A stretch of 57,194 nucleotides of DNA from an uncultured Frankiales bacterium (GCA_966212015.1 CBIHPE010000001.1:1-57194); one strand, 5' to 3'. Numbered from the stretch's first letter, positions 38,687 through 54,288 are shown. Numbers and translations are program-made. Notes: generated by a model not told the origin, from the sequence alone.

Positions 38687-39306
38687 GGCGTGACGCCTGG
38701 GACGAGGGAGACCGTGCGGAGCGCGCCGGCGAGGAGCTCGGCCAGGTCCTTGGTCGCGCCGCTGGCCAGCCAGGTGTCGAGGCTGATGCGCACGGCGGAC
38801 ATGGTGAGCGCCCCGACCATGCGGGGCCGGGCGTCGTCGGGGGTCAGGTCAGCGAAGCGGTGAGCGACCGCGTCGGCAATGGCTATCTCGAACCGGACGT
38901 AGAGGGCCAGCGTCCACGCCGTGAGCGTCGGAGAGCTCTGCAGCAGCTGCACCTGCTGCAGCACCAGGTTGCGGACCTCGGGGGTGAAGCCGCCCGCGAA
39001 GCCGGTGAACGTCTCGATGACCGCTTCGAGCGCACCGAGCTCGGCCGGCTGGACCTCGAGGTTGTCGAGGATCAGCGACAGCCAGGGGATGCTGAACCCC
39101 TCGGCGACCGCCGTCTCCTTGGCGTCGAAGTAGCGGAAGAAGGTCGCGCGGCCCACCTCGGCAGCGGCGGCGATCTCGTCGATCGTCGTGTTGTCGAGGC
39201 CCTTCAGCCGGGTCAGCCGGGCTGCCTCGTCAGCGATCCGCTGGTGCGTCGCCCGCCGCTTGCGCTCGCGCAGCCCGAGCTCCGGGGCAACGGTGATCTG
39301 CGACAC
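38683..39306 (-). CDS. TetR-family transcriptional regulator
   Basis: 207 aa. HTH TTIDEIAAAAEVGRATFFRYF. Confidence 0.9.
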   Translation of the reverse strand: MSQITVAPELGLRERKRRATHQRIADEAARLTRLKGLDNTTIDEIAAAAEVGRATFFRYFDAKETAVAEGFSIPWLSLILDNLEVQPAELGALEAVIETFTGFAGGFTPEVRNLVLQQVQLLQSSPTLTAWTLALYVRFEIAIADAVAHRFADLTPDDARPRMVGALTMSAVRISLDTWLASGATKDLAELLAGALRTVSLVPGVTP

Positions 39307-39360: not shown

Positions 39361-40458
39361 TCACGTGCGCCAGCGGTACGCCGCGAGGGCCGTGAGCTGC
39401 TGCGGCCCGGCCTCCTCGACGGTCCAGAGCGAGGCGCCGACGGCACCACCACGACGGGCAGCGTCGAGGAAGCGCAGCGTCTCGCGCGCCGACGGGGTGC
39501 CCCGCCGGCCGCCTTCGCTGCCCATGTCGTACCCCTGTCCCACGGGAGCGACGGGGAGGAGCCTGCCGAGGGTCCGCAGCGACTGCTGGACGAGGCTGCC
39601 CGGCTCCTTGCAGGACCAGTAGACCATCGGCGCGAACACGTCGGCGTACGGCTGGAAGAGCGCGTAGGGGTAGGACTTCCTGGCGCTGGAGGGACGCGGC
39701 ACGGTGGCGATCACGGGCCGCTCCCCGGCGTACCGCCGGACCAGCGAGAGGTAGAGCCTCAGCCGCCGCGCCGTCACGTGCGTGCCTTCGGCCGACGTCT
39801 CCACGTCGGGGGAGAAGGCGTCGATGCCGGTGGCGAGCGCCTGCCGCGCGCGGGTCGCGTCGGCGACCGGGTCGGACAGGAACGGGAAGTCCCACGCGAT
39901 GACGCGGAGGCCTGCGGCGTGCGCCTTCGGCACCAGCGATCCGAGGAACTGGTCGCCGTAGTAGCCCTGCCGGGTGCCGCCGGTGCGCACCCAGATGCTC
40001 CGCACGCCGGTCCGCCGCGCCTGCGCGATCAGCGCGTCGACGCCGAGTGGCTCTTTCCCGAACGGCGTCGCCCAGAGCCCCTTTCCGCGCACCGCGTCCA
40101 GCCCGGATGCCTTGCGCAGCACGGGAAGTGCGGCTGGCAGCGCGGCCTCAGCGACCTTCGGCGGAGTCAGCGGGCGGGGGCCACCGCCGCCGTGGGACGG
40201 CTTGACCGGGCAGCCCGTGAGCGGGGGAGACGCAGGGACGGGGACGTCGACGGGCTTCGCCTTCGGCGTGGCCTTCGGCTTCGCGTGGGTCGGCGCCGGC
40301 TTCGGCGCGACGGGCGCGGGCGTCTCCTGCCGGGTGACGACCACCGGCTCTCGAACGGCCGCCGGCTTCGCGTCGCTGTGCGTCCCGGCAGCGACCGTCG
40401 CGGTCAGCAGCGTCCCGATCGCGAGCAGCCCGACTGCGCGCTCTGCTGCCGTCACCAC
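39361..40458 (-). CDS. Secreted hypothetical protein, possibly a glycoside-hydrolase-like TIM barrel
   Basis: 365 aa. N-terminal hydrophobic signal or anchor. Pro/Lys/Ala-rich linker. Alpha/beta-looking C-terminal domain (IWVRTGG, RVIAWDFPF). The function is a guess. Confidence 0.6.
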   Translation of the reverse strand: MVTAAERAVGLLAIGTLLTATVAAGTHSDAKPAAVREPVVVTRQETPAPVAPKPAPTHAKPKATPKAKPVDVPVPASPPLTGCPVKPSHGGGGPRPLTPPKVAEAALPAALPVLRKASGLDAVRGKGLWATPFGKEPLGVDALIAQARRTGVRSIWVRTGGTRQGYYGDQFLGSLVPKAHAAGLRVIAWDFPFLSDPVADATRARQALATGIDAFSPDVETSAEGTHVTARRLRLYLSLVRRYAGERPVIATVPRPSSARKSYPYALFQPYADVFAPMVYWSCKEPGSLVQQSLRTLGRLLPVAPVGQGYDMGSEGGRRGTPSARETLRFLDAARRGGAVGASLWTVEEAGPQQLTALAAYRWRT

Positions 40459-40485: not shown

Positions 40486-41109
40486 TCAGGAGACCAGCTT
40501 GAGGGCGTTCGCGACGTACTTCTCGAGGATCTGCTCGCGGGTGCGGGGCGAGTCGGGGGTCCACCACTCGGGCAGCCGCACGCCCATGGCGCCGATCGCC
40601 TTGGCGTCCAGGTAGGGGTCGGTGCTGTGGAAGACACCCATCCGGACGCCTCGCTCGATGACGTCGATGCTGATCTGCTCGGACTGCGTCCGGATCGCGA
40701 CGACGTCGGCGTACTGCTCAGGGGTGAGGGCACGCAGCTCGCGGTTGGTGAGCCGAGCCATCGACGGGAAGTCGAGGTGCACGCGGACGTGGGCCGACAC
40801 CGTGGCGCGGAGCTGGTCGACGGGGTCGGACCCCGCGTCCATCAGCGCGTCGCGCAGCGACTCGAAGTGGGACCGGTGACCGATCAGCGCGAGGTCGAAC
40901 AGCAGGTCCTGCTTGCTCGCGACGTGGAAGTAGATGGCGCTGGGCTGCTGGCCCAGGGCGTTCGCGATGTCGCGGATGGAGACGGCGTGGAAGCCCTCCT
41001 GCCCGAACAGCTCGAGGGCCACCTCGTAGAGCTTGCGCTTCGCGGGCGACATCTCGAGGCCGGGCGGGAGCAGGCCCTCGGTCGCGAGAACCTCAGCAGT
41101 CATGGCCAC
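40486..41109 (-). CDS. TetR-family transcriptional regulator (divergent from the fused ABC operon)
   Basis: 207 aa. HTH VSIRDIANALGQQPSAIYFHV. ATG 41103 is an alternative start. Confidence 0.9.
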   Translation of the reverse strand: MAMTAEVLATEGLLPPGLEMSPAKRKLYEVALELFGQEGFHAVSIRDIANALGQQPSAIYFHVASKQDLLFDLALIGHRSHFESLRDALMDAGSDPVDQLRATVSAHVRVHLDFPSMARLTNRELRALTPEQYADVVAIRTQSEQISIDVIERGVRMGVFHSTDPYLDAKAIGAMGVRLPEWWTPDSPRTREQILEKYVANALKLVS

Positions 41110-41114
41110 AGCCT

Positions 41115-41124
41115 AACGATCGTT
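41115..41124. promoter_or_regulatory. Palindrome AACGATCGTT; related AACGAT-TGATCA at 41225-41236
   Basis: Perfect 10-bp palindrome 6 nt upstream of the TetR start. A second AACGAT lies next to palindromic TGATCA just before the ABC start. TTGACA at 41180-41185 is a possible -35. Confidence 0.3.
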
Positions 41125-41240
41125 CGGTCAGCAAGCGAGACCTTTTCAAGGCTCGTGTGAGCGAAATCTCCCACAGGTGTTGACAGCGACGCAACACAAG
41201 GAGCAATCTTCGGCTCCCCAGCAGAACGATTGATCAGTAG

Positions 41241-44200
41241 GTGAGGCTGCGCATGCCGTATCGCCGGCTCGTGAGCCGTCCGGAGCTGCTGCTCCTGGTC
41301 GCGCTCGTCGTCGGCTGCTCCTTCCTCTCGGAGGGGCTCCCGCTCGGCATCGCCGGGCTGGGGGTCGTCACCGGCTGCATCGTCGGGCTGCACGCCATGG
41401 GCATCGTGCTCGTCTACTCGCGGACCCGGATCCTGTCCTTCGCGCAGTTCGGGCTCGGCGCGTTCGCCTCCACGCTGTTCTTCGCCTGCATCTTCTACAA
41501 CCAGTGGGCGGTCCTCGGCGACGGCGTCTGCAAGTGCCTGGCCCCGGACGGCGCCAACCTGTACCAGCTGCAGCACCACCCGACTGCCTACCGCGCGTAC
41601 CTCGCGCACGAGCACCCGTGGGCGCTGGTGCTCAACATCGTCATCACCGTCGTGCTCGCCGTCCTGTTCGCGCTGGACGCGGGCAAGACGGTCTACAACA
41701 AACACACGACGTTCTTCTACCGCGCCCCCGCGATCGGCCCGACGATCGCGACGCTGGCGTTCGCGGGGATCCTGAGCGGGGCTGCCGGGGCGCTGACCCT
41801 GCGCACGAAGCAGACCTTCGGCCACTACATCTGGCAGTGGTGGCCCTGGGGACCGGTGCCCGGCACGGGCATCCACGGGAAGCCGGCGGTCCCGGAGGGC
41901 ATCTTCGAGATGCCCCACCAGAAGGACCTCGGCTTCTCCCTGAGCGGCGGCGCGACGTTCCACCTGTACGACGTCCTGGCGGTGCTCACGGCGCTGCTCG
42001 CGCTCGGGTTCGTCACGCTCCGCTTCCGGGTGGGGCGCCGTGGCCTGCTGAGCCGGGCTGCCGCCGCCAACCTCGAGCGGTCGGCGACGCTCGGCGTCGA
42101 CGTCGTGAAGGAGAGCCGGGGCCCGTGGCGGGTCGCCGGTGCCCTGGCCGGCCTGTCCGGCGTGCTGGCGATCGCGACCGGTGGCGGCCAGCCCGTGACC
42201 GGGCTCGACGTGAGCGTCCTGACGAGCGTGCTCGCGGCCGTCGTCCTGGCCCGGCTGACCAGCCCGGGCTGGGCGCTGCTCGCCTCGGTGCTGCTGGGGG
42301 TCCTCGACCAGGGCATGTACTGGAACCTGCGGTCCCACACCCAGTACCAGGGGGCGCTGTTCGTCATCATCGGCGCGGCCCTGCTCATCCAGCGCGGGCG
42401 CAAGAACCGCGCCGAGCGCGACAGCGAGTCGGTCTTCACGTCCGCGACCGAGCCGCGCCGGGTGCCCCTGCAGCTGCGCAACGCGCCCGGCGTGAACGGC
42501 TTCCTGCGGGCCAACGCGCTGCTCGCGGGCGCGATCCTGATCAGCTACCCGCTCTTCACGACGCCCGGCCAGCTGAGCCAGGGCCTCGTCATCGTCGCCA
42601 ACATGGTGCTCGGCCTGTCGATCCTGGTGCTCTCTGGCTGGGGCGGGCTGGTCAGCCTCGGACAGCTGTCCGTGGCGGCCGTGTCGGCGTACGCCGTGGC
42701 GATCGCCGGCGCGACCTGGCACCTGCCCATGCCGCTGGCTCTCCTGCTCGGCGCCTTCGCGGCCGCGCTGGTCTCACCGGTGGTCGGCTTCCCGGCACTG
42801 CGGCTGCCCGGCCCGTTCGTCGCCATCATGACGCTGGCCTTCGCGCTCGCGATCCCGGCGGTGCTGCTCAACCCGGACCTGCTGGGCGACGCGCTCCCCG
42901 GCAACCTGCCGCGGCCCGTGCTCCTCGGCCTCGACTTCGACAGCGACCGCTACTTCTACTGGTTCTCGCTCCTGGTGCTCGCCGGCGTGCTCGCGCTCGT
43001 GACCGGCCTCCGCCGGTCCCGACTGCGCCGGGCGCTGATCGCGGCCCGCGACAACCAGCTCGCGACGGAGGCCTTCGGCGTCGACGTCACGCGGCTGCGG
43101 CTCGAGGCCTTCGCCGTGTCAGGCTTCATCGCCGGCCTGGGCGGCGGACTCCTGGCGTACGCCAACAGCGGGGTCCAGGGCGACGCCTTCGCGGCACCCA
43201 GCAGCATCCTGATCTTCCTGCTGGTCGTCATCGGCGGGCTGTCCGCCGTCTCTGGCCCGGTGCTCGGGGCCGGCACCTTCGGGCTCGTGTCGCTGCTCGG
43301 TCCGACCTGGGCCGGCACCTACATCGGCCTCGGCACGCTCTTCATCTTGGCGGCCCGGCCGAACGGCCTCGCGGGCCTCGTGACCAGCCTCCGCGACGCG
43401 GCGATCCGCGTGATCATGCACCTGCAGGGCAACGACCTCATCCGCTTCGGCGGCGCCCGGGTCGCCATCGCCGACCGCGGTGCACAGGCGCCGGTCGTGC
43501 CCGTGACCTACCGCCTGGTCGGCGACGGGTTCGGTCCGGTCGAGGGCACCCGGCTGCGGCCCGTCGAGGGCGTTGCCGCCGTGGAGCAGGTGGTCGAGCC
43601 CGAGCTGGTCGACGAGGTCGAGCAGGCGCTCTCCCGACTGGCCTGCCACCGGCTCGACGTCAGCTACGGCGGCGCGAGCGCCGTCACGGGCGTCTCGCTG
43701 TCGGTGGCTCCGGGCGAGATCCTCGCGATCGTCGGCCTCAACGGCGCCGGCAAGACGTCGCTGCTGCGGGCGCTCGCGGGTCTCGAGCCGGCGGCCCACG
43801 GCACCGTGGAGATCAACGGCACCGACGTCACCCTGATGCTCCCGCAGGACCGGGCCGGACTGGGCCTGGGCTACGTGCCGGGTGGGGCCGCGGTGCTCCC
43901 GACGCTGACGGTCCGGGAGAACCTCGTCGTCGCAGGCGGCGACGACGACTCGATCGAGGAGATGGTCACCCGCTACCCGGCCCTGGGTCAGCGGCTCGAG
44001 ACCATGGCCGGCAACCTGTCCGGCGGCGAGCAGCAGGTGCTCGCGCTCGCGCAGGGCGTCCTGCGCCGGCCGTCTGCTCTGCTCGTCGACGAGCTGTCAC
44101 TCGGCCTGTCGCCGGAGGCGCTGTCGGCGACGCTCGACCTGATCGTGCAGCTGGCCGACGAGGGCACAGCGATCGTGCTGGTGGAGCAGTCGATCAGCAC

Positions 44201-45164
44201 CGCGATGTCGATCGCCGACTCCGCGGTCTTCCTCGAGAACGGCCGGGTCCGCTACCAGGGGCCGGCGCAGTCGCTGCGCGACCACCCCGAGCTGTTCGCC
44301 AGCGTCGCCTTCGGCGCCGGCGGGGCGAGCACCGGTGGCGGCTCGGAGCTCTCCCGCGCTCTCAAGCAGCAGCGCACCGAGCGCGAGCCGGTGCTCGTCG
44401 TCGAGCACGTCAGCGCGGCTTACGGCGACGTGCGCGTCGTCGACGACGTGTCCTTCGACCTGGCGGCCGGCGAGGTCGTCGGCGTCCTCGGTCCCAACGG
44501 CGCCGGCAAGACGTCGCTGTTCGACGCGCTGTCGGGACTGCTGCCCGTCGCCGAGGGCACCGTCAACCTGCTGGGTACGGACATCACGGGGACCAGCTCG
44601 CACCGGCGCGCGCAGCTCGGCCTGATGCGCTCCTTCCAGAGCGTGCGGCTGTTCCCCTCCTTGACCGTCCGAGACACGATCGCCGTCGCCCTCGAGACGC
44701 GCCTGCAGGTGAAGAGCTCGGCCTTCGCCGGCTTGTGGCTGCCACCGGCGCGCGCCGAGGAGCGTCGCACCGACGAGCGCGTCGACGGCCTGCTCGAGCT
44801 GCTGCGCCTGGAGAAGGTCGCGGACGCCAGCATCTCCTCCCTGTCGCTGGGGTCGCGCCGGATGGTCGACCTGGCGTGCCAGCTGGCGGCGCGTCCGAAG
44901 GTGCTGCTGCTTGACGAGCCGGCTGCGGGTCTGGCGGCGGGGGAGACGGAGCTGCTGGGTCCGCTGGTGAGCCGGATCAGCAGCGACCTGGACTGCGCAG
45001 TCCTGATCATCGAGCACAACGTGCAGGTGCTCGCGTCCGTCGCCGACCGCCTGATCGCCATGAGCAACGGCGCGGTGATCGTCGAGGGTGCCCCGAACGA
45101 CGTCCTGAACGACCCCGAGGTGCGCGGTGCGTACTTCGGGTCCCGACAGCTGCAGAACTCCTGA
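41241..45164 (+). CDS. Single-polypeptide HAAT-type ABC transporter: LivH-like TMD + LivM-like TMD + LivF-like NBD + LivG-like NBD
   Basis: 1307-aa uninterrupted ORF. Two polytopic halves. NBD1: GLNGAGKTS / LSGGEQQ / LLVDELSLGLSP. NBD2: GPNGAGKTS / LSLGSRR / LLLDEPAAGL. ATG 41253 is an alternative start. Confidence 0.88.
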   Translation: MRLRMPYRRLVSRPELLLLVALVVGCSFLSEGLPLGIAGLGVVTGCIVGLHAMGIVLVYSRTRILSFAQFGLGAFASTLFFACIFYNQWAVLGDGVCKCLAPDGANLYQLQHHPTAYRAYLAHEHPWALVLNIVITVVLAVLFALDAGKTVYNKHTTFFYRAPAIGPTIATLAFAGILSGAAGALTLRTKQTFGHYIWQWWPWGPVPGTGIHGKPAVPEGIFEMPHQKDLGFSLSGGATFHLYDVLAVLTALLALGFVTLRFRVGRRGLLSRAAAANLERSATLGVDVVKESRGPWRVAGALAGLSGVLAIATGGGQPVTGLDVSVLTSVLAAVVLARLTSPGWALLASVLLGVLDQGMYWNLRSHTQYQGALFVIIGAALLIQRGRKNRAERDSESVFTSATEPRRVPLQLRNAPGVNGFLRANALLAGAILISYPLFTTPGQLSQGLVIVANMVLGLSILVLSGWGGLVSLGQLSVAAVSAYAVAIAGATWHLPMPLALLLGAFAAALVSPVVGFPALRLPGPFVAIMTLAFALAIPAVLLNPDLLGDALPGNLPRPVLLGLDFDSDRYFYWFSLLVLAGVLALVTGLRRSRLRRALIAARDNQLATEAFGVDVTRLRLEAFAVSGFIAGLGGGLLAYANSGVQGDAFAAPSSILIFLLVVIGGLSAVSGPVLGAGTFGLVSLLGPTWAGTYIGLGTLFILAARPNGLAGLVTSLRDAAIRVIMHLQGNDLIRFGGARVAIADRGAQAPVVPVTYRLVGDGFGPVEGTRLRPVEGVAAVEQVVEPELVDEVEQALSRLACHRLDVSYGGASAVTGVSLSVAPGEILAIVGLNGAGKTSLLRALAGLEPAAHGTVEINGTDVTLMLPQDRAGLGLGYVPGGAAVLPTLTVRENLVVAGGDDDSIEEMVTRYPALGQRLETMAGNLSGGEQQVLALAQGVLRRPSALLVDELSLGLSPEALSATLDLIVQLADEGTAIVLVEQSISTAMSIADSAVFLENGRVRYQGPAQSLRDHPELFASVAFGAGGASTGGGSELSRALKQQRTEREPVLVVEHVSAAYGDVRVVDDVSFDLAAGEVVGVLGPNGAGKTSLFDALSGLLPVAEGTVNLLGTDITGTSSHRRAQLGLMRSFQSVRLFPSLTVRDTIAVALETRLQVKSSAFAGLWLPPARAEERRTDERVDGLLELLRLEKVADASISSLSLGSRRMVDLACQLAARPKVLLLDEPAAGLAAGETELLGPLVSRISSDLDCAVLIIEHNVQVLASVADRLIAMSNGAVIVEGAPNDVLNDPEVRGAYFGSRQLQNS

Positions 45165-46189
45165 TGAGCCCCACGAGAGGACCCCAGAAGAACATGGCCA
45201 CTCCCACGGTCACCCGCCAGCGCAACAAGCCGGCGTCGATGTCCGCATCCGGGTTCCAGGAGGCGTTCGAGCGGATCGTTGCGAACGCGTCGCTTGTCAT
45301 CAAGGGCAAGGAGGAGGCGCTGCGGCTGGTGCTGACGGCGATGATCGCTGACGGTCACTGCTTGTTGGAGGACATGCCGGGGACGGGCAAGACGATGATG
45401 GCGCGGGCGCTGTCGACGTCGATCAACGCCAAGAGCAACCGCATCCAGTGCACGCCGGACCTGCTGCCGTCGGATGTGACGGGCGCGCCGGTGCTGGACA
45501 CGCGGAACGGGACGTTCACCTTCCGTGAGGGGCCGGTGTTCGCGAACGTGCTGCTGGTCGATGAGATCAACCGGGCGACGCCGAAGACGCAGTCGGCGCT
45601 GCTGGAGGCGATGCAGGAGCGGAACGTCACGCTGGACGGCGTGACGCACAAGCTCCCGACGCCGTTCCTGATCCTGGCGACGCAGAACCCGGTGGAGCAG
45701 GCGGGCACGTTCCAGCTGCCTGAGGCGCAGCTGGACCGGTTCCTGATCAAGCTGTCGGTCGGCTACCCGGACCGGGAGGCGGAGGGTGAGCTGCTGGATG
45801 CGAACAAGTCGACGGAGGCGATCACCCGCCTGGGGTCGGTGTCGAGCACGGAGGAGATCTTGGCGATGCAGGCGTTCTGCCAGGACGTGGACCTGCCTGA
45901 GCCGGTGAAGATGTACATCGTCGACGTGTGCCAGGCGACCCGCACCGACCCGTCCCTGCTGATGGGCGCGAGCTCGCGTGCCTCGATCTCGCTCGTCAAG
46001 GCGTCACGTGTCCGCGCCGCGTCGCAGGGCCGTGACGTGGTCCTGCCGGACGACGTCCGCGCGCTGCTCTCGGCCGTCATCGAGCACCGGCTGATCCTGA
46101 CCCCGGACGCGCAGCTGCGCGACGAGACCGTCACCAACGTCCTCGAGCGGATCCTCACCCGCATCCCCGTCCCCCTCGGCGTCGGCTAG
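45164..46189 (+). CDS. MoxR-family AAA+ ATPase
   Basis: 341 aa. Walker A DMPGTGKT, Walker B VLLVDEINRATPKTQSALLEAMQE, LPEAQLDRF. The start shares 1 nt with the ABC stop (TGATG). ATG 45194 is an alternative start. Confidence 0.92.
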   Translation: MSPTRGPQKNMATPTVTRQRNKPASMSASGFQEAFERIVANASLVIKGKEEALRLVLTAMIADGHCLLEDMPGTGKTMMARALSTSINAKSNRIQCTPDLLPSDVTGAPVLDTRNGTFTFREGPVFANVLLVDEINRATPKTQSALLEAMQERNVTLDGVTHKLPTPFLILATQNPVEQAGTFQLPEAQLDRFLIKLSVGYPDREAEGELLDANKSTEAITRLGSVSSTEEILAMQAFCQDVDLPEPVKMYIVDVCQATRTDPSLLMGASSRASISLVKASRVRAASQGRDVVLPDDVRALLSAVIEHRLILTPDAQLRDETVTNVLERILTRIPVPLGVG

Positions 46190-46195
46190 CTGAAG

Positions 46196-47464
46196 ATGGC
46201 TGCCCTCTCCCGTCGGCGCGCGACCGGTCCCAGCTCGGAGGTTGCGGGCTTCGGCGCGCTCGTCGAGCGGTTCACCGGTCTCACGTCAGCTGGGGCGATC
46301 GTCCTCGTGGCGAGCCTGCTCGGCTACGTGCTGGCCCGCCAGCTCGGTGGCCGCGCGCTGTTCCTGCTCGTCTCCGCGGGTGTCCTGCTCGTGGTCGCCG
46401 CCGCCGTCACCAGCCGTCGCAAGCGGCGGCTCACCGCTGAGCGGTCCGCGCTCCCGACGCGGATGCGGGTCGGGCAGGTCGCTGAGGTCGAGCTGACGGT
46501 GAAGTCGCCGGGGCGGCTCCGGGCCTTCGTCGTGCAGGACCACATGTCCTCGCTGCTCGCCGACCAGGTGCGGGTCCCGGTGCCGACCGTCGGTTCGGAG
46601 CAGGACTTCGTGCACGCGTACTCGATCCGCCCGACGCTCCGTGGCGTCTACCAGCTGGGCCCGCTGGCGGCGGAGTGGACCGACCCGTTCGGGCTCGCGC
46701 GGCACCAGCAGAAGCTCAGCGACCCGGTCGACGTGATCGTGCACCCGACGACCGACGCGGTGTTCGACCGGCCGCTGACCCGGATGTGGGAGGACCCGCC
46801 GTTCCGCCCGCCGGTGTCCAAGCCGTGGCCGCAGGGCTTCGAGTTCTACGGCATGCGCGACTACGTGCCCGGTGACGACCCGCGCCGGATCGTCTGGACC
46901 GCCATGGCCCGCACCGGGAAGTACCTCGTCCGCGAGTCGGAGCAGGGCATCACCGACCGCATCACCGTCGTGCTCGACAACAACGCCAGGGCGCACTCGC
47001 CGGGCTACCCGTCGGAGACCTTCGAGCTGGCCATCCGGGCCTGCGCCTCCCTCGGCGCCTGGAACATCAAGCAGGGCTTCTCGGTCCGCTTCCTCACCAA
47101 CGACTCGGGCCAGGGCCCGGAGCTGCGGGGCAGCAAGGCCCGCATCAGCCTGCTCGACGAGCTGGCCAAGCTCGAGCTCACCGACGTGCCCGTCAGCAAG
47201 GCCATCGAGCGGGTCATCACCGAGCGCCGCGGCGGCACCCACATGTGCCTGGTCTCAACCGGGTTCGACAACCGCACGGCCACGCGCGTCCGCATGCTCA
47301 CCGACAAGGGGATGTCGCTCGTCGTCTGCCTGGTGCGCTGGGAGGACAGCGACCCGAACGCCGCGCGGCGGGCCCGCGAGATCGGCGCGCAGGTCGTGCA
47401 GGTCTCCCCGGGCGACCAGCTCGAGCACGCCTTCGCCCACGGCCTCGGGCTGGCCGTCCGATGA
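46196..47464 (+). CDS. DUF58 (VWA-like) domain protein
   Basis: 422 aa. Two N-terminal TM helices. DUF58 signature FYGMRDYVPGDDPRRIVW...RESEQG. Confidence 0.88.
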   Translation: MAALSRRRATGPSSEVAGFGALVERFTGLTSAGAIVLVASLLGYVLARQLGGRALFLLVSAGVLLVVAAAVTSRRKRRLTAERSALPTRMRVGQVAEVELTVKSPGRLRAFVVQDHMSSLLADQVRVPVPTVGSEQDFVHAYSIRPTLRGVYQLGPLAAEWTDPFGLARHQQKLSDPVDVIVHPTTDAVFDRPLTRMWEDPPFRPPVSKPWPQGFEFYGMRDYVPGDDPRRIVWTAMARTGKYLVRESEQGITDRITVVLDNNARAHSPGYPSETFELAIRACASLGAWNIKQGFSVRFLTNDSGQGPELRGSKARISLLDELAKLELTDVPVSKAIERVITERRGGTHMCLVSTGFDNRTATRVRMLTDKGMSLVVCLVRWEDSDPNAARRAREIGAQVVQVSPGDQLEHAFAHGLGLAVR

Positions 47465-50355
47465 CCTCGATCCTCGACCAGCCCGCTGACCTCGACCACC
47501 TCGAGAAGCCCGACCTCGACCACCTCGCCGACGACCCCGCCGAGCACGGCCCGGAGGACGAGCAGGAGCGCGCTCTCGCGCCCGCGGCTCTCGCGCTCGC
47601 AGCCGTGTCGGCCCTGCTGTCGTCCGCCGGGGCCGCGTGGATGGTCGGCGGCATCTTCCGGGGCCTCGAGGCCCGCCTCGTCGGACTGCTCGGCGTCCTC
47701 ATCGGCTGCGGCTTCGTCTACCTCGGCACCCGGCTGCGCAGCTCCGTCCTCCAGTACCTGACCCTGCCGGCAGCGCTCCTCGCCGGTGCCGTTCTCATGA
47801 GCAGCGCGTCCGGGGCGGGTACGTCCTCGCTGCCGGCGCTCGTCAAGGACGCCGCGACCACGTCGCAGGTGCTCCAGCCGCCGATCGACTTCGCGCCCGG
47901 CTGGCGTCTGATCCTCGTCGTCATCCTCGCGCTGCTGTCGTCCGCTGCCTGCTCGCTCGCGCTGTCGCTGAGCCGGCCCCGGCTCGCCGTCGCCGTGCCC
48001 GCCCCGCTCGTCGTCGCACCCGCCTTCATCCAGCCGAGCTCGTCGGCGGTCGTCACGAGCTCCGTGAGCGTCGGCCTCGTGATGATGGCGCTCGCCACGT
48101 CGTACGCCGCCGACGGCGTGGGCGACACCTTCGACGCGAGCTTCGAGCTGCGCCGCCTCGCGCGCAGCGTGCTCGCCGGCGGCCTGCTCATCGCGACGCT
48201 CATCGCCGCGAGCAAGGTGTCGTTCCTGTTCCCGGAGAAGGACAAGCACCACGTCGTCCCGCCGCGTCGCCCACCCGTGAGCCCGCCGCAGCCGGACGTC
48301 CCGCTCTACACGGTCACCGGCGCGCTGAACGGCCCGCTCGAGGCCGGCGTCATCGACGTCTACTCCGTCAAGGAGGGCGCCTGGCTGCTGCCCCCCGTCG
48401 ACAACCTGCGGCTGAAGCGCCTCAAGTCCGACGCGGACATCCCGGGTGCGCCGGCGCCGTTCGGCGCCTCGACGAGCTTCAGCGTCACGGTGAAGCAGGC
48501 GACCGGTCACCTGCTGCCGTCGGTCTCGTCGGCGCTGCACCTCGACGGTGATGTGAAGGTCGACTACGACCCCCGCACGCAGTCGCTGTCCCTCCCCTCG
48601 AGGCCGGTCTACACCGGGCTGCACTACACGGTCACGACGAACCCCGTCCCCGACGGGAAGCAGCTCAGCGCGGTCAAGGGCGACGTCCCGTACGCGCTGA
48701 GGGAGTTCCTCACCGCGCCCGACGCGCCGCCGGCCGTCACCGACCTGCTCGCGAAAGCCCCGCAGGCGCCTTACGCGAAGCTGCAGTCGCTCCGCGCGGC
48801 GCTCTACCGGAAGTTCACCGCCGCGGGACAGGGCAAGCCGACGGACGTCGACGCCGACCGGGTCGTGCAGCTGCTCCGCGGCGGCACCGGCAACCCCTAC
48901 GAGCTCACCGCCTCCGAGGCGCTGCTGGCCCGCTGGGCCGGCATCCCGAGCCGCATCGGGTTCGGCTACTACAACGGCAACCCGCTCGACGACGGCTCCG
49001 TCGAGTTCCGCCCCGCCAACGCCGCGACCTACCTCGAGGTCTACCTCGCGCCCTACGGCTGGGTGCCCATCATCGGTGTCCCGCCGCGTGCGCAGCAGAG
49101 CCTGTCCAACAACCAGCGCAACAACGACTCGAGCATCGCCGCATCGCCCGAGCTCGGCATCAACGTCTACCTGCCCGTGAAGCAGGACAACCGGTTGCCG
49201 CTCTACGAGTACGCCCGCTACTACCTGGTGCGCGCACTCCCGATCGCCCTCGGCGTGGGCGCGCTCGTGCTCCTCTACCCCGTCGTCCTGAAGCGGGTCC
49301 GCCGGCGGCGGCGCGCGGCCTGGGCGAGCCAGTTCGGTCCCGCCGGTGCGATCGCGGTGGCCTACTGCGCCCTGCGTGACCAGATGATCGACCTCGCCCT
49401 GCCGGGGCGCGGCCTGACCCCCCTGGAGCTGGTCGAGATCATCGAGGAGGACGAGGAGCACGCCGAGCTGGCCTGGCTCGTCACGCGCGGGCTGTGGGGC
49501 GACCTGCGGCACCGCCTCACGGAGGAGGACGCGGCGGCAGCGCGGGCCCTCAGCGCCTCGGTGAGCGCGCGGCTGTCGAAGGCCCAGCCCGAGACGGCGC
49601 GGCTCCTCGCTGCCGTCTCCCGGGCCAGCCTCCGGCACCCGCACAGCCTCGAGGTGCCCAACGCGTGGTGGGAGCTGCGGCTGCCGCGGCTGCGCGTGCC
49701 CCGGCTGCGGGCGCTGCGCCCCAGCGTCGCGACGTCGCTCCTCGCCGTGCTCGCGACGCTGACCCTCGGCGGCTGCTCGTCCGGCGGGCACCACGCCGAG
49801 CCGAGCGTCGCCTTCCCGACCCGGCTCGCCCCGACTGCCGTCGCAGGGCTCGAGGTGCACGAGGAGAAGCGCGCCACGGCTGCCTACGTCAAGGCCGCCA
49901 AGGACGACGCGGTGATCGTCAACGAGGGCAAGGTGCTCTCCTTCAACAAGAACGGGCTCGTCCAGGCCGCCCTTCAGGTCGCGCAGCTCAAGCCTGGCTA
50001 CGTGAGCACGGACAAGGAGGTCCGGGACGCGATCACCCGGAGTGTCGGCAGCGGCAACCAGGTCGCGAAGCTCAGGCCCGAGGGCTCGCACGACCTCTAC
50101 AACGTCGTCGACGGCAGCCAGCGCATCTACCTCTGGTTCCCCACGGCGAAGTCGATGGCCCTGCTGGTCCTGCGCACGCAGATCACCGAGGGAGCCGCGG
50201 AGGCTCTCGCGCGCGGCCTCATCGACTACTCCGACGGTGGCGACATCAGCGAGGCAGCACTCTCCGCAGCCTTCGCCGACTCCACCGGACCGACCCCCAG
50301 CGGCACCCCGACCAGCAGTCCCAGCCCCAGCGCCTCCCCGGAGCCGACGCCATGA
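47461..50355 (+). CDS. Polytopic transglutaminase-like protein (apparently lacking the Cys-His-Asp triad) with DUF4129-like region and an extra C-terminal lipoprotein-like module
   Basis: 964 aa from ATG 47461 (ATGA overlap). N-terminal multi-TM region. TGase-core-like stretch ARWAGIPSRIGFGYY...YLEVYLAPYGWVPI. A TM, then an acidic DUF4129-like segment, then an in-frame lipobox LTLGGC at 49759-49776. Confidence 0.8.
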   Translation: MTSILDQPADLDHLEKPDLDHLADDPAEHGPEDEQERALAPAALALAAVSALLSSAGAAWMVGGIFRGLEARLVGLLGVLIGCGFVYLGTRLRSSVLQYLTLPAALLAGAVLMSSASGAGTSSLPALVKDAATTSQVLQPPIDFAPGWRLILVVILALLSSAACSLALSLSRPRLAVAVPAPLVVAPAFIQPSSSAVVTSSVSVGLVMMALATSYAADGVGDTFDASFELRRLARSVLAGGLLIATLIAASKVSFLFPEKDKHHVVPPRRPPVSPPQPDVPLYTVTGALNGPLEAGVIDVYSVKEGAWLLPPVDNLRLKRLKSDADIPGAPAPFGASTSFSVTVKQATGHLLPSVSSALHLDGDVKVDYDPRTQSLSLPSRPVYTGLHYTVTTNPVPDGKQLSAVKGDVPYALREFLTAPDAPPAVTDLLAKAPQAPYAKLQSLRAALYRKFTAAGQGKPTDVDADRVVQLLRGGTGNPYELTASEALLARWAGIPSRIGFGYYNGNPLDDGSVEFRPANAATYLEVYLAPYGWVPIIGVPPRAQQSLSNNQRNNDSSIAASPELGINVYLPVKQDNRLPLYEYARYYLVRALPIALGVGALVLLYPVVLKRVRRRRRAAWASQFGPAGAIAVAYCALRDQMIDLALPGRGLTPLELVEIIEEDEEHAELAWLVTRGLWGDLRHRLTEEDAAAARALSASVSARLSKAQPETARLLAAVSRASLRHPHSLEVPNAWWELRLPRLRVPRLRALRPSVATSLLAVLATLTLGGCSSGGHHAEPSVAFPTRLAPTAVAGLEVHEEKRATAAYVKAAKDDAVIVNEGKVLSFNKNGLVQAALQVAQLKPGYVSTDKEVRDAITRSVGSGNQVAKLRPEGSHDLYNVVDGSQRIYLWFPTAKSMALLVLRTQITEGAAEALARGLIDYSDGGDISEAALSAAFADSTGPTPSGTPTSSPSPSASPEPTP

Positions 50356-51332
50356 AGCGACCCCTCGTCCTGGCCCTCGCAGCCTGCGCCCTCGCGACCG
50401 CCTGCGGGCCGACGACCCACCTCGACCTGCGGCTGCGCGGCGTCGAGATCACGTCGGTGCGTGTGCTGACGCCGGCGATCACCCTCGTGCCCCCGGCGAC
50501 CACGCCTCCGCCCGCGTCGCTCCCGCCGGTGCCGCCCATCACGACGTACCTGCCCCCGTCGCCGGCTCCGGGCGCGAGCGCGCCGCCCGCGGTCCTGACC
50601 CCGCCGCCCGCGTGTCCGACGGCCGGCCAGTTCGACGCCCCCGAGTTCGCTGCTCCCGCTGCGGTGAAGGGGATCCCGGCGAACGCGGAGTACGTGCAGA
50701 AGGCGCTCGGGACGTATGCCGAGAACGGCACCCAGAAGCCGCTGGACGGCATCGTCGACGTGAAGGTCGTCCGGCTCCCCGACAGCACCACGACGGCGAA
50801 CCAGGCCGTCCGGTCCTGGCGGGTGGAGCGGCACAACGGCAAGGCGAGCTCGGTCGAGGTCTACCAGCTCGTCGGTCCGTCGAGCCTCGCAAGCGCGGCC
50901 TCCCCGGTCTCGCCGGGGATCTACCTCGTCGGGCTGGCCTGGGACGACCCGACGCGCGGCAAGCTCACGTTCCAGCCGACCGGCAACGGGCTGTGGATCC
51001 TGCCCGACCCGGTGGCCGAGGCGACGAACGACACCCAGTACGTCGGCACCGCCACCGACCCGAACACGGTGACCACGCTCGAGCTGCTGCGCAACGTGCG
51101 GGCGCACAAGCGGGTCGACGCCTGCGGCAAGCTCATCGACACCTTCACGGTCGAGATGAGCGGCACGCTCGTGTCGCCGACCGACCAGTACCAGGTGAGC
51201 TGGACGCAGCAGCTCGCCACGGCCTACGGCGGTCTCGACGTCGCGAGCACGTTCTCCCTCGTGTCGCCGCTGACGACGTTCCGCTGGAGCAGGTCGCTCA
51301 CCTCGACGACCGTCCCGAAGGCGTCGTCGTGA
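50352..51332 (+). CDS. Hypothetical lipoprotein with a Pro-rich linker
   Basis: 326 aa. MKRPLVLALAACALATACG lipobox. ATGA overlap with the upstream stop. Pro-rich tract, then a beta-looking domain. Confidence 0.8.
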   Translation: MKRPLVLALAACALATACGPTTHLDLRLRGVEITSVRVLTPAITLVPPATTPPPASLPPVPPITTYLPPSPAPGASAPPAVLTPPPACPTAGQFDAPEFAAPAAVKGIPANAEYVQKALGTYAENGTQKPLDGIVDVKVVRLPDSTTTANQAVRSWRVERHNGKASSVEVYQLVGPSSLASAASPVSPGIYLVGLAWDDPTRGKLTFQPTGNGLWILPDPVAEATNDTQYVGTATDPNTVTTLELLRNVRAHKRVDACGKLIDTFTVEMSGTLVSPTDQYQVSWTQQLATAYGGLDVASTFSLVSPLTTFRWSRSLTSTTVPKASS

Positions 51333-51538
51333 GCGCCCCGCTCCGCCGGCCGGGGCGCACCCCCGGCAGCGTCAACCTCGCCGTCGGCCTGGGGCTGCTG
51401 GTGCTGCTGCTCCCGCTCCTCCTCAACGCGGCGACCTCCTCGCCCCCGACGGCGGCGGAGTTCTCGCCGAACGCCAAGCAGGTCATCAAGAAGGCGCCGC
51501 CCGGCCAGGCCGCCGCCGTGACCGGGACAGGGCAGTGA
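51329..51538 (+). CDS. 69-aa signal-anchor ORF, probably the N-terminus of the downstream binding protein
   Basis: GTG 51329 (GTGA overlap). RRPGR n-region and hydrophobic core VNLAVGLGLLVLLLPLLL. Ends at TGA 51536-51538 in the same frame as the next ORF. Confidence 0.6.
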   Translation: MSAPLRRPGRTPGSVNLAVGLGLLVLLLPLLLNAATSSPPTAAEFSPNAKQVIKKAPPGQAAAVTGTGQ

Positions 51539-51547
51539 TCGGCCCCT

Positions 51548-51577
51548 GGCGCCGGTCCGTCCGCCGGACCTGGCGCC
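51548..51577 (+). other. GC-rich hairpin 10 nt downstream of the in-frame TGA
   Basis: GGCGCCGGTCC (51548-51558) pairs with GGACC-T-GGCGCC (51566-51577). 11 bp, one bulged T, 7-nt loop GTCCGCC. Confidence 0.6.
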
Positions 51578-51625
51578 TCGCCGTCCCCCACTCCGAGCCC
51601 GACCCCGACGCCCACCCCGAGCCTG

Positions 51626-53068
51626 GTGCCCCAGAACCAGCTGAAGCGGTGCGTCGGCCCGCCCCCGCTGCGGCAGATCGAGGACCCGCAGTCGCCGCCC
51701 TGCATCGCCTACTGGAACGGCGACAACGGCGGTGCCACGTCCAAAGGCGTGACGAAGGACGCGGTCTACGTCGCGGTGCCCACGCCCGAGAACGCGAAGG
51801 ACCAGTACGACGCGCTGTTCGCGTTCTTCAACGCGCGGTTCCAGCTCTACGGGCGCAAGCTCGTCCCTAACTACTGCGACACCACGGCATCCGGCAGCAG
51901 CGACCAGGCGACGCAGGTCTCGGACGCAGCGACCAACGCCTCCGGGTGCAACGGCAAGTACCACGTGCCCTTCATCTCGACGATGTACCGCACGGCCAAC
52001 GGGCCCTACTACATGCCGGAGATGGGCTGCCGCTACAAGGTCATCGCGGTCGGCTCCTACTCGCCCTACGACAGCAAGCAGCTGGGCAAGTGCCCGGGCT
52101 ACGAGTACCAGTACCCGATGCTCGTCGACGACGAGTTCGCCAACATCGGCGAGTGGATGTGCAAGCGGCTCGCGGGCAGGAAGGCGGAGTACGTCTCCGG
52201 CAACGACGGCTCGACGCCGGGCAAGCCGCTCAGCTCGCTGACCCGAAGGTTCGGGATCCTCATCGAGCCCTTCACCGACGACGACCCGGTCATGCGGCGC
52301 AGCGCGTTCAACCCGATGACGTCGCGGTTGCGCGCCTGCGGAGCCGATGCCCCGGCGAAGGACCAGATCCTCAACCCCGTCGTCGGCGAGTTCGACGCAG
52401 CGTCGGCCCAGAACACCATGCTGCAGCTGAAGAACGACGGCGTCACCTCCGTCGTCTGCATGTGCAACTTCTTCAGCTTCGGCACGCTGGCCCGGGCGGC
52501 GTCGACCAACGCCTACCACCCTGAGTGGATCAGCTCGACCTTCGGCCTCAACGACGTCAACAGCTCGTTCTTCCTCGGGGCGGCGCCGACGGACCAGATG
52601 CAGCACCTGTTCGGCGTCACCTTCCAGCCGCCCCTGGTCCGCCCCCTGCTCAACCCCTACAACATCGCCGTGCACGAGGGGAACCCGGCACAGGGCGGCG
52701 ACACGACCAGCTTCGTCGAGGCCAAGCTCGAGATCTACCGCGCGCTGCTGGTGATCGCCTCCGGCATCCAGATGGCCGGCCCGAAGCTGACCCCGAAGAC
52801 CTTCCAGCAGGGGCTCGAGAAGACCACGTTCCCGAACCCCGACACCGAGACGCACGCCGGCCATGTCGGCTTCAAGCCCAACACCTACTCGATGACCGAC
52901 GACGGCGCCGAGTGGTACTGGTCCACGACCGCCCGCGGCCCGTTCACCGACAGCGACAGCCACCCCGGAACGGTCTGCTACCTCAACGACTTCCGGCGCT
53001 ACACCCTCGGCAACTGGCCCACCGGCAAGGGTCCGTTCTTCACCGGCACCTGCAAGTCGTCGCCGTGA
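51626..53068 (+). CDS. Cys-rich type-1 periplasmic-binding-fold (LivJ-like) protein lacking its own signal peptide
   Basis: First ATG/GTG/TTG after the TGA is GTG 51626. The frame is open from 51539 and encodes a Pro/Ser/Thr/Gly linker. 12 Cys. PBP1-like start GVTKDAVYVAVP. Confidence 0.75.
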   Translation: MPQNQLKRCVGPPPLRQIEDPQSPPCIAYWNGDNGGATSKGVTKDAVYVAVPTPENAKDQYDALFAFFNARFQLYGRKLVPNYCDTTASGSSDQATQVSDAATNASGCNGKYHVPFISTMYRTANGPYYMPEMGCRYKVIAVGSYSPYDSKQLGKCPGYEYQYPMLVDDEFANIGEWMCKRLAGRKAEYVSGNDGSTPGKPLSSLTRRFGILIEPFTDDDPVMRRSAFNPMTSRLRACGADAPAKDQILNPVVGEFDAASAQNTMLQLKNDGVTSVVCMCNFFSFGTLARAASTNAYHPEWISSTFGLNDVNSSFFLGAAPTDQMQHLFGVTFQPPLVRPLLNPYNIAVHEGNPAQGGDTTSFVEAKLEIYRALLVIASGIQMAGPKLTPKTFQQGLEKTTFPNPDTETHAGHVGFKPNTYSMTDDGAEWYWSTTARGPFTDSDSHPGTVCYLNDFRRYTLGNWPTGKGPFFTGTCKSSP

Positions 53069-54288
53069 GCCAGGACGTGAGAGAGCTCGGCTTCGACCCC
53101 GAGCGGCTGGCCCGCATCGACAAGCTGCTCGCCGGCTACGTCGATGACGGCAAGCTGGCGGGCTGGCAGGTCGCGATCACCCGCAAGGGCCAGGTGGTGC
53201 ACGACGCCGGCTACGGCTGGCGCGACCGCGAGGCCGGCAAGCCCGTCGAGAGCGACACCCTGTGGCGGATCGCGTCGATGACGAAGCCGATCACCTCGGT
53301 GACGGCGATGACCCTCTGGGAGGAGGGCGTCTTCGACCTCAACGAGCCGGTCAGCACGTGGATCCCGTCGTTCGCGGACGCGCGGGTCTACACCGGCGGT
53401 GTCGGCCGCACGATGCAGACGAAGCCGGCCACCGAGCCGGTGCGGGTCTGGCACCTGCTCTCGCACACCTCCGGCATGACGGCCGGGTTCCTGCGCAGCT
53501 CGCACGTCGACCAGCTCTACCGCGACGCGGGCTACGAGTTCGGCGCGCCGGCAGGGCACGACCTCGCGGCATGCGTCGACGACTGGGCCCGGCTGCCGCT
53601 GCTGTTCAACCCCGGGAGTGCCTGGGGCTACGGCGTCTCGACCGACGTCGTCGGCCGGCTCATCGAGATCTGGACCGGCCAGCGCCTCGACCAGGCCTTC
53701 GCGAACCGGGTGCTCGAGCCGCTCGGGATGAAGGACACCTGCTGGTGGGTCGGGGACGCGCGCGCAGATCGGCTCGCGGCGCTCTACGTCCCCGATGACG
53801 ACTTCCAGGCCGTGCGCTACGAGCTCAGCGACCACGTGGGGCGCAGCGAGCCGACGATCCACTCCGGTGGTGGCGGGCTCATCAGCACGATGCCGGACTA
53901 CCTCCGCTTCACGCAGATGCTCAACGGCGACGGCGAGCTCGAGGGCACCCGCATCCTGTCGCCGCGCACGCTGCGGCTGATGCGCTCCAACCACCTGGTC
54001 GGCGACCTCGACGACAACCGCGCCGACGGCTTCGCCGAGACGACGTTCCCGGGCGTCGGCTTCGGTCTCGGCTTCGCTGTCCTCGAGGACCCGCTGCTGA
54101 TGCACTCCGTCGCCAACAAGGGCGAGTACTTCTGGGGCGGCATCTACGGGACGACCTTCTGGTGCGACCCGGTCGACGACCTGTCGTGCGTCTTCATGAC
54201 GCAGCTGCTGCCGTCCGACATGCACCCGATCCGCGCTCAGCTGCGGCAGCTCGTCTACAGCGCGCTCATCGACAGGAGACCCGCGTGA
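53065..54288 (+). CDS. Beta-lactamase-family serine hydrolase (paralog 1, no signal peptide)
   Basis: 407 aa from GTG 53065 (GTGA overlap). SxxK motif IASMTKPIT. Class-C/EstB-like. Confidence 0.85.
   Translation: MSQDVRELGFDPERLARIDKLLAGYVDDGKLAGWQVAITRKGQVVHDAGYGWRDREAGKPVESDTLWRIASMTKPITSVTAMTLWEEGVFDLNEPVSTWIPSFADARVYTGGVGRTMQTKPATEPVRVWHLLSHTSGMTAGFLRSSHVDQLYRDAGYEFGAPAGHDLAACVDDWARLPLLFNPGSAWGYGVSTDVVGRLIEIWTGQRLDQAFANRVLEPLGMKDTCWWVGDARADRLAALYVPDDDFQAVRYELSDHVGRSEPTIHSGGGGLISTMPDYLRFTQMLNGDGELEGTRILSPRTLRLMRSNHLVGDLDDNRADGFAETTFPGVGFGLGFAVLEDPLLMHSVANKGEYFWGGIYGTTFWCDPVDDLSCVFMTQLLPSDMHPIRAQLRQLVYSALIDRRPA

Follow-up and report, generated by a model that had tools for sequence, protein, structure and literature searches.

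Bacterial ATP-binding cassette (ABC) importers of the textbook kind are built from separate subunits, and this holds for the conventional HAAT-type systems LivHMGF/LivJK and UrtBCDE (TC 3.A.1.4), with which the transporter described here is best compared. It is encoded in a window of 57,194 nucleotides, the whole stretch of DNA that was analysed, from an uncultured Frankiales bacterium (GCA_966212015.1 CBIHPE010000001.1:1-57194). The transporter shares with the Liv and Urt systems two BPD_transp_2 transmembrane domains (TMDs) in the order LivH then LivM, nucleotide-binding domains (NBDs) of the LivG and LivF types, the C-terminal tail BCA_ABC_TP_C, a degenerate LivG-type signature, a LivF-type 'VEQ' switch, and a binding protein of LivK fold, called Y below. 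It differs from them in being one chain, in the order of its NBDs (F then G), in an extra N-terminal transmembrane (TM) helix, and in two insertions of the first TMD (TMD1) that are predicted to face outward. Further differences are a Gly at the Q-loop position of the first NBD (NBD1), a Y protein that is TM-anchored, Cys-rich and without a Pfam match, and a co-encoded MoxR module.

Modules of the latter kind have been described without such a transporter. The one in Pseudomonas aeruginosa involves PA2875 and PA2874, which we take to be the MoxR and DUF58 proteins. Together with TgpA (PA2873) they form a same-order, co-transcribed module, in which TgpA has a conserved Cys-His-Asp triad and showed transglutaminase activity in vitro (PMC3507681). 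The bifidobacterial PFNA cluster also contains a core of MoxR (MRP subfamily), DUF58 and transglutaminase (PMC12067865). Like these modules, the window encodes, in that order, a MoxR ATPase of the AAA_3 family, a DUF58 protein and a polytopic protein with a PF01841 domain predicted to face outward, the topology of the last matching that of TgpA (PMC3507681). Unlike TgpA, this TgpA-like protein belongs to a Cys-less subfamily whose genes invariably neighbour those of a HAAT-type transporter and, in most cases, that of a lipoprotein, X; PFNA has a Ser/Thr kinase and an FN3 protein instead. The analyses below indicate that the window gene is the Actinomycetota-type variant of a conserved transporter-MoxR system.

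The open reading frame (ORF) scan of the window gave a transporter of 1307 amino acids (aa) from GTG at 41241, with no internal stop. Gene callers and the N-termini of homologs pointed to ATG at 41253, 12 nt 3' of the GTG, as the probable start, which gives 1303 aa. In Pfam, BPD_transp_2 (PF02653) matched at aa 41-375 and again at aa 455-693, with scores that exceed the gathering threshold in both cases. ABC_tran likewise matched twice, at about aa 816-951 and about aa 1068-1228, and the branched-chain-type C-terminal motif BCA_ABC_TP_C once, at aa 1279-1301. NCBIfam assigned NBD1 to UrtE/LivF and the second NBD (NBD2) to LivG/UrtD, and matched the second TMD (TMD2) to UrtC (E 3e-18) as well as to LivM (Table 1). 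The LivH-like assignment of TMD1 was weak, with a BLAST E value of 2e-4 against the LivH half of the window's own LivHM; the additional helix that precedes TMD1 lies at aa 14-27 in an AlphaFold2 (AF2) model. This domain parsing agrees with an earlier note on the same DNA, which had described four modules, TMD-TMD-NBD-NBD, in one uninterrupted HAAT-type chain, and the junctions estimated there at about 42430, 43500 and 44330 (aa 396, 753 and 1030) fit the Pfam boundaries. TMDs and NBDs on separate polypeptides, the layout of conventional importers, were not found in the window transporter. Its stop codon overlaps the start of the MoxR gene (TGATG).

Because the GC content of the window is about 70%, long ORFs occur in many frames. 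One of them, 41504-44914 (+, 1136 aa), overlaps the transporter gene, but it was rejected as a gene and regarded as a by-product of high GC; its translation is mostly Arg, Pro, Gly and Ala. The true frame is backed by profile matches and by homologs at 1500-2800 bits. A large protein database contained about 60 proteins of about 1300 aa with 57-75% identity to the window transporter, drawn from JGI, ENA, NCBI and Logan assemblies, and these close homologs aligned without gaps from about residue 18 to 1300, spanning all three module junctions. The junction sequences were kept even in homologs of 33-44% identity. The earlier note had raised the loss of stop codons during assembly, and one could suppose that stop loss or frameshifts in the assembly of a GC-rich livHMFG-like operon had produced the single ORF, as high GC yields long spurious ORFs and a neighbouring gene in the window does hold one suspicious in-frame stop. 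The full-length homologs from independent assemblies, with their conserved junctions, exclude such an artefact, and this explanation is effectively refuted.

The four-module architecture is also widespread. When residues 108-1307 were searched exhaustively against 1.84 billion cluster representatives (50% identity), about 45 further clusters of 1190-1420 aa aligned from TMD1 to the C-terminus, and four-module HAAT fusions are thus diverse and not rare. A literature search limited to open-access text found no description of them. Three-module fusions (TMD-TMD-NBD, 951-971 aa) were also observed in loci L006 and L023.

The pairwise identities bear out the order of the NBDs given in the earlier note, LivF-like then LivG-like, opposite to that of the conventional operon. 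NBD1 was 36.5% identical to the LivF of this genome and 27.6% to its LivG, and NBD2 was 39.3% identical to LivG and 28.2% to LivF. The same order was common to all 96 fused homologs examined, and such a family trait speaks against a fusion that arose when an HMGF operon simply lost stop codons. NBD1 contains a Walker A motif GLNGAGKT, a signature LSGGEQQ and a Walker B motif LLVDE; Gln replaces the switch His (VEQS), as in LivF, while Gly occupies the Q-loop position (VPGG) where LivF has Glu. NBD2 contains Walker A GPNGAGKT, Q-loop SFQS, Walker B LLLDE and switch IEH, followed by the BCA_ABC_TP_C tail. From the differences in the NBD1 motifs, the two NBDs may constitute an asymmetric ATPase pair. 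The NBD2 signature LSLGSRR (aa 1201-1207), previously called atypical, turned out to be the norm for LivG-type subunits, which generally lack the canonical LSGGQ; its counterpart is LPTGLAR in the window's own LivG and LSTG[TS]RR in fused homologs without the insertions.

Both TMD1 peptides that the earlier note had quoted as insertions are present, conserved, and truly inserted when compared with insertion-less fused homologs. In the alignment, the window protein is longer by about 45 residues at aa ~89-136 and by about 24 at aa ~193-216. Among 56 close-clade sequences, neither region contained an alignment gap. C97 and C99 of insertion 1 were found in 55 of the 56, whereas L110, Q111, H112 and P114 (motif L110-Q111-H112-x-P114) were found in all, as were W200, P202, G204, E219 and P225 of insertion 2. 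The AF2 model of aa 1-780 reached a pLDDT of 88.5 and a pTM of 0.87, with values of about 87-95 in both insertion regions. The topology was estimated from the helix order, the positive-inside rule and a conserved Arg/Lys-rich loop after TM5 (aa 261-297), which was taken to be the NBD-coupling loop. These together place both insertions outside the cell, and both are therefore predicted to face outward. A role of insertion 1 as a metal site was considered and set aside, as the Cys spacing varies (CxC, CxxC), the His is not conserved in distant members, and the predicted outward location fits disulfides better.

In a Foldseek search with the TMD1-TMD2 model, the only significant match in the PDB was FhuB of FhuCDB, itself a fused TMD-TMD chain (E 2.5e-5, probability 1.0), with TM-scores of just 0.34/0.41. 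BtuC, PsaC and HmuU were weaker matches (probability 0.94-0.99, E 0.05-0.5). FhuB is thus the closest solved fold, but FhuB, BtuCD and HmuUV are type II importers of another family with other binding-protein classes and separate NBDs, at an identity of just 12-16% and TM-scores of 0.34-0.54. The PDB sequence search with the TMD half gave nothing useful.

The insertions track the MoxR module. Among the fused transporters, insertions and module occurred together in 11 of 11 loci, in two gene orders, and both were absent in six of six; the insertions were found only alongside MoxR, DUF58, the TgpA-like protein and X. The gene order in the close clade was TetR (divergent), ABC, MoxR, DUF58, TgpA-like, X (~320 aa), Y (~575-585 aa) and beta-lactamase-family hydrolase, in a tightly packed operon with overlapping stop and start codons. 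A second insertion-bearing clade, 43% identical to the window transporter, was represented by L021 (labelled Candidatus Dormibacteria) and L022, where the order was TetR, Y, ABC, MoxR, DUF58, TgpA-like and X, and where homologous versions of both insertions were present. The taxon labels here and below are those of the metagenome-assembled genome (MAG) records. P0267 was considered as a third insertion-bearing lineage and was rejected, as it lacks both insertions.

The spacing between two TMD1 motifs also separated the two groups. It was 76-102 residues (~96), always with C-x(1-2)-C, in every MoxR-linked TMD1, and 53-55 residues without a Cys pair in insertion-less proteins, giving a bimodal distribution. 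Insertion 2 was confined to the four-module MoxR-linked clades. It is by insertion 1 that a transporter of the MoxR-linked system is recognised.

Fusions without the insertions (P0063, P0074, P0086, P0070 and P0107; Actinomycetota and others) have the same architecture at 33-44% identity, with conserved junctions and an adjoining Y-like or Peripla_BP_6 gene. They differ from the window system in that they lack the TMD1 insertions and have no MoxR, DUF58, TgpA-like protein or X nearby. Six of them were studied in genomic context (L004-L007, L023 and L024), and each directly adjoined a binding-protein gene of ~440-630 aa; a Peripla_BP_6 match, above threshold or weak, is on record for the partner in L005, L023 and L024, and that of the L004 partner was sub-threshold. 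Neither MoxR nor DUF58 was found near any of the six. The earlier note had asked whether four-module fusions always accompany MoxR/DUF58 genes, and they do not.

The system extends beyond the four-module fusion. The locus L025 (labelled Candidatus Solibacter, Acidobacteriota) encodes a split transporter, composed of a TMD-TMD protein (772 aa) and a protein (1027 aa) in which two NBDs follow a major facilitator superfamily (MFS) segment. The TgpA-like gene lies 3' of MoxR-DUF58 and the split transporter, and an X-like lipoprotein gene is next. The NBDs of L025 were 46% identical to those of the window in the same F-then-G order, and its TMD1 contains a homolog of insertion 1 with the Cys pair and lacks insertion 2. 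No Y-like gene was detected within 10 kb of L025.

A broader survey, of metagenomes, was anchored on the Cys-less TgpA-like protein and so covers this subfamily. It had 197 relatives, 80 loci were fetched, and 36 of them, with at least 8 kb upstream, were informative; the components were detected by tblastn with a small query panel, and the resulting co-occurrence counts are phylogenetically non-independent. None of the 36 loci lacked MoxR, DUF58, TMD2 or an NBD pair of the HAAT type, and TMD1 was detected in all but one (35/36). The MFS-like segment was found in 32/36 and was missing only from the four four-module loci. A Y-like gene was found in 29/36 and an X-like gene in 20/36, the latter an undercount because X is poorly conserved. 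The canonical gene order was kept in 34/36, with L087 and L104 rearranged. The gene set is thus conserved across at least three bacterial phyla by the labels of the source records, and the four-module fusion is one architectural variant of a wider system, a point absent from the earlier note. In the open-access literature, no account of a HAAT transporter linked to MoxR, DUF58 and TgpA was found.

The MFS-containing proteins form a large family of about 1000 aa with an N-terminal MFS_1 domain, a LivF-type NBD and a LivG-type NBD (L025 4609-7692; P0109-P0120; ~50 clusters; survey loci L035-L104). Their genes usually follow a separate HAAT TMD-TMD gene and precede MoxR-DUF58-(Cys-less TgpA-like). 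In P0072, P0103 and P0105, TMD-TMD-NBD-NBD-MFS was observed in one chain of ~1650-1720 aa. The joining of an MFS domain to ABC ATPase domains was unexpected.

The Y gene, overlooked as a binding protein in the earlier note, encodes a protein in which a single TM helix at the N-terminus is followed by a Pro/Gly linker and which has numerous conserved Cys. It matched no Pfam or NCBIfam family, and searches of PDB sequences with Y-family profiles gave nothing useful and no closely related protein of characterised function. Y is homologous to 560-583-aa partners of insertion-less fusions (E 6e-22 and 8e-20), which in turn matched Peripla_BP_6 (E 6e-7 and 1e-5). The Y-family profile aligned by hhalign to the window's own Peripla_BP_6 protein with a probability of 90% (E 1.6e-6). 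The AF2 model of Y (pLDDT 93.4, pTM 0.92) retrieved LivK/LIVBP structures at probability 1.0 with a TM-score of up to 0.71. Its homology, LivK fold and position in the operon indicate that the transporter has a cognate binding protein. The Y gene of the window is interrupted once, by an in-frame TGA (51536-51538) within the Pro/Gly linker that connects the anchor with the binding domain; beyond it the frame stays open to 53068. Nearly all of the ~640 members of the Y family are intact, at 560-590 aa. Two readings of the TGA are considered: an error of assembly or consensus, or a genuine nonsense mutation, in which case the binding domain would not be exported.

The divergence of Y was observed to be uneven. 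In some cassettes the transporter was 72-73% identical to that of the window and Y 50-53%, whereas in others Y was 66-73% identical. This unevenness (L008 and the contigs of P0003/P0204 and P0004/P0209) points to two subtypes of Y that may differ in ligand specificity.

The coordinates of the transporter, its parts and the other cassette genes are given in Table 1.

Table 1. Features of the single-chain transporter locus, with positions counted from the first nucleotide of the window
Feature	Coordinates	Strand	Basis
Single-chain HAAT-type ABC transporter	41241..45164	+	ORF scan, Pfam, NCBIfam, homologs
TMD1, divergent LivH-like BPD_transp_2, ~aa 35-385	41343..42395	+	Pfam E 9e-13, weak BLAST, AF2 helices
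Insertion 1, ~aa 86-125, three short helices in predicted outward-facing loop	41496..41615	+	Alignment, conservation, AF2
Insertion 2 region, ~aa 190-230, Trp/Pro-rich predicted outward-facing loop	41808..41930	+	Alignment, conservation, AF2
TMD2, LivM/UrtC-like, ~aa 416-730	42486..43430	+	Pfam E 1e-24, NCBIfam LivM E 1e-22, BLAST E 1e-11 against LivM half of the window's LivHM
NBD1, LivF/UrtE-like, ~aa 800-1020	43638..44300	+	Pfam, NCBIfam, motif comparison
NBD2, LivG/UrtD-like, ~aa 1050-1307	44388..45161	+	Pfam, NCBIfam, motif comparison
MoxR-type AAA+ ATPase (AAA_3 + AAA_lid_2)	45164..46189	+	Pfam AAA_3 E 1e-61, AAA_lid_2 E 1e-18
DUF58 protein, N-terminal two-helix membrane hairpin	46196..47464	+	Pfam E 7e-10, topology estimate
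TgpA-like polytopic membrane protein, 964 aa	47461..50355	+	Pfam, topology estimate
X, predicted lipoprotein or secreted protein, 326 aa, with MKRPLVLALAACALATAC followed by G	50352..51332	+	Sequence features
Y, membrane-anchored Cys-rich substrate-binding protein, LivK/LIVBP fold	51329..53068	+	Homology, hhalign, AF2 and fold search
Beta-lactamase-family serine hydrolase, SMTK (SxxK) motif	53065..54288	+	Pfam, NCBIfam
TetR-family regulator (TetR_N + TetR_C_24), divergent	40486..41109	-	Pfam
Intergenic region, candidate regulatory: palindrome, TTGACA and related site	41112..41237	.	Seven-locus alignment, palindrome detection

MoxR and the DUF58 domain are predicted to be cytoplasmic. The TgpA-like protein scored 41 bits against Transglut_core (PF01841; cut-off 23), and many members of its family also match PF11992. 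It has 6 or 7 N-terminal TM helices and, after the domain, a TM helix with a strongly positive flank, and the helix count together with this flank places the Transglut_core loop outside the cell by prediction. The core region was without Cys in 10/10 cassette orthologs and 114/114 family members, and that of the window is also without His; a Cys-His-Asp catalytic triad was therefore not found. With no Cys in its core, the protein cannot be a thiol transglutaminase and is a pseudo-transglutaminase, a feature overlooked in the earlier note. The position of the lost catalytic Cys is presumably the Pro of GNPYEL, assuming a canonical motif G-x-C-x-x-F-A. The family (P0385-P0504) has the conserved motif (N/S/T)PYE(I/L)TA.EALLARWAG(I/V)P(S/A)RIG(Y/F)GYY. 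A C-terminal domain of ~190 aa follows a further hydrophobic segment that ends in a lipobox-like LTLGGC. The C-terminal parts matched no family in Pfam or NCBIfam, and the PDB sequence search with the core gave nothing useful. X also matched no Pfam or NCBIfam family; in L021, L022 and L025 the gene after the TgpA-like one encodes an X-like lipoprotein.

In the close clade, the conserved part of the cassette ends with the beta-lactamase-family gene, which Pfam also found in L008. No signal peptide was detected in the hydrolase, and its closest NCBIfam model was the methyl acetate hydrolase AcmB, an esterase, at 172 bits against a cut-off of 550. The SxxK motif, the lack of a signal peptide and the esterase-like match suggest cytoplasmic processing of an imported compound. 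Two tandem paralogs of this family were observed in the window (53065-54288 and ~54200-55472), while other cassette loci had one, right after Y.

A regulator with a TetR_C_24 domain borders the cassette in L021, L022 and the loci of the close clade. The intergenic region of the window contains a palindrome, CCTAACGATCGTTCGG, at 41112-41127 beside the TetR start (consensus over seven loci, CCGAACGATCGTTCGG), TTGACA at 41180-41185, invariant across the seven loci, and a site related to the palindrome, CAGAACGATTGATCAG, at 41222-41237, immediately 5' of the transporter start codon. This layout is a candidate operator and promoter, and the conserved palindromes and the invariant TTGACA suggest control of the operon by TetR.

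On the far side of the TetR gene, 39361-40458 (-) encodes a predicted secreted protein of 365 aa that contains a Pro/Lys-rich linker and has no match in Pfam or NCBIfam. Of the fetched loci, L014, the closest relative, was alone in having it beside the cassette (87% identity), and the protein is thus probably outside the system. The window also contains a conventional HAAT locus on the minus strand, composed of a substrate-binding protein (SBP; 37106-38686), LivHM (35171-37102), LivG (34393-35184) and LivF (33683-34393). In its SBP (526 aa), Peripla_BP_6 is preceded by an N-terminal extension of ~150 aa; LivHM is a fusion of 643 aa, and LivG and LivF are separate. A TetR gene with a TetR_C_14 (MftR C-terminal) domain lies beside it at 38683-39306.

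Domain architecture, folds, homology, conservation and gene linkage are what the analyses above have shown, and the reading that we consider likely is that of a single-chain HAAT-type transporter which is a binding-protein-dependent importer and, at the same time, the ABC part of a MoxR-DUF58-TgpA-like-X envelope system, with the insertions as a likely docking surface. We infer import direction, substrate class, regulation and physical contact via the insertions as follows. The transporter would most likely import a small solute delivered by Y, which the co-encoded cytoplasmic beta-lactamase-fold hydrolase would probably process, and the divergent TetR regulator would probably control the operon. 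It would act as the ABC component together with MoxR, the membrane-anchored DUF58 protein, lipoprotein X and the TgpA-like protein, which no longer has a catalytic thiol. If the ectodomain of the TgpA-like protein, that of X or both dock on the transporter, the likeliest site would be the outward-facing insertions of TMD1, and the Cys-pair loop of insertion 1 in particular. The proposal of the earlier note that the insertions are contact surfaces for co-encoded envelope proteins thus has strong comparative support, as they are predicted to face outward and are only MoxR-linked; that they physically touch these proteins is put here as a likelihood.

Several points weigh against this reading. 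The co-occurrence may reflect few independent evolutionary events. The lack of a Y-like gene near L025, and likewise in 7 of the 36 survey loci, means that dependence on a binding protein may not be universal. The MFS domain of most distant systems is not accounted for by the model. Given the in-frame TGA in Y, this organism may have a defective system, unless the assembly is wrong at that point. Finally, no solved TMD structure of the HAAT family was found in the PDB for comparison, by sequence or fold searches.

The transporter might instead be an ordinary fused importer of the branched-chain-amino-acid type, with MoxR, DUF58 and the TgpA-like protein as mere neighbours within one transcription unit and the insertions as lineage-specific decoration or as elements tuning the docking of Y. 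The insertion-less four-module fusions, which sit with a binding-protein gene alone, would fit this, as would the occurrence of MoxR-DUF58-transglutaminase triads alone in other bacteria; moreover, the Y of the cassette clade is divergent and Cys-rich, so that the insertions could have co-evolved with Y alone. However, the gene set was recovered in all 36 informative loci from three labelled phyla in spite of changes in order (Y upstream or downstream; L087 and L104) and of fusion variants, and L025, with insertion 1 and no Y nearby, indicates that the Cys-pair insertion follows the MoxR module and not Y. We therefore consider an ordinary importer quite improbable. A mechanotransducer or sensor would be another alternative. 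In FtsEX-type systems an ABC ATPase is coupled via extracytoplasmic loops to an envelope protein, and by analogy outward-facing loops, driven by ATP and perhaps gated by Y, would regulate the pseudo-transglutaminase and X through their ectodomains, with MoxR/DUF58 remodelling from the cytoplasm and nutrient import not the primary function. The partner ectodomain is indeed that of a pseudo-enzyme, typically regulatory or scaffolding, the outward-facing loops are system-specific with invariant residues, some systems have no binding-protein gene nearby, and NBD1, without the Q-loop Gln/Glu and the switch His, suggests an asymmetric ATPase. These NBD features, however, are of the LivF type and also occur in ordinary Liv systems. 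FtsEX has an unrelated TMD fold (MacB/FtsX type), no binding protein and no sequence relationship to the window transporter, whose TMDs are of the importer type. A LivK-fold binding protein in 29 of the 36 loci and in all actinobacterial cassettes, and a co-encoded cytoplasmic hydrolase as expected for uptake followed by catabolism, also argue for import, and a primary sensor is in our opinion unlikely.

A stronger form of the importer-envelope reading is that the transporter, Y, MoxR, DUF58, the Cys-less TgpA-like protein and X constitute one physical envelope machine, in which the ABC cycle would be coupled, mechanically or by allostery, to the pseudo-transglutaminase and X ectodomains via the Cys-pair loop and also to a cytoplasmic MoxR-DUF58 remodeller. 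This is a tentative idea, and we are more inclined to doubt than to accept it. If true, it would define a new class of ABC-coupled envelope system in several soil-bacterial phyla, beyond a nutrient importer, and would provide the first functional context for the enigmatic MoxR-DUF58-TgpA triad.

The family presents a complete importer-type transporter as a single chain, widespread in uncultured soil bacteria. As the single chain fixes the stoichiometry and the pairing of two non-equivalent NBDs, it is attractive for structural work on HAAT transporters. The most speculative remark of the earlier note, which connected the insertions with envelope proteins, points at the most interesting feature, the conserved system in which a HAAT transporter is linked to MoxR, DUF58 and a pseudo-TgpA. 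Many bacteria conserve the MoxR-DUF58-TgpA triad, whose TgpA is essential in P. aeruginosa, but no function is known for the triad. A subfamily of the triad that is always encoded with a transporter bearing a hallmark outward-facing loop offers concrete hypotheses on its partners, interface residues and regulator.

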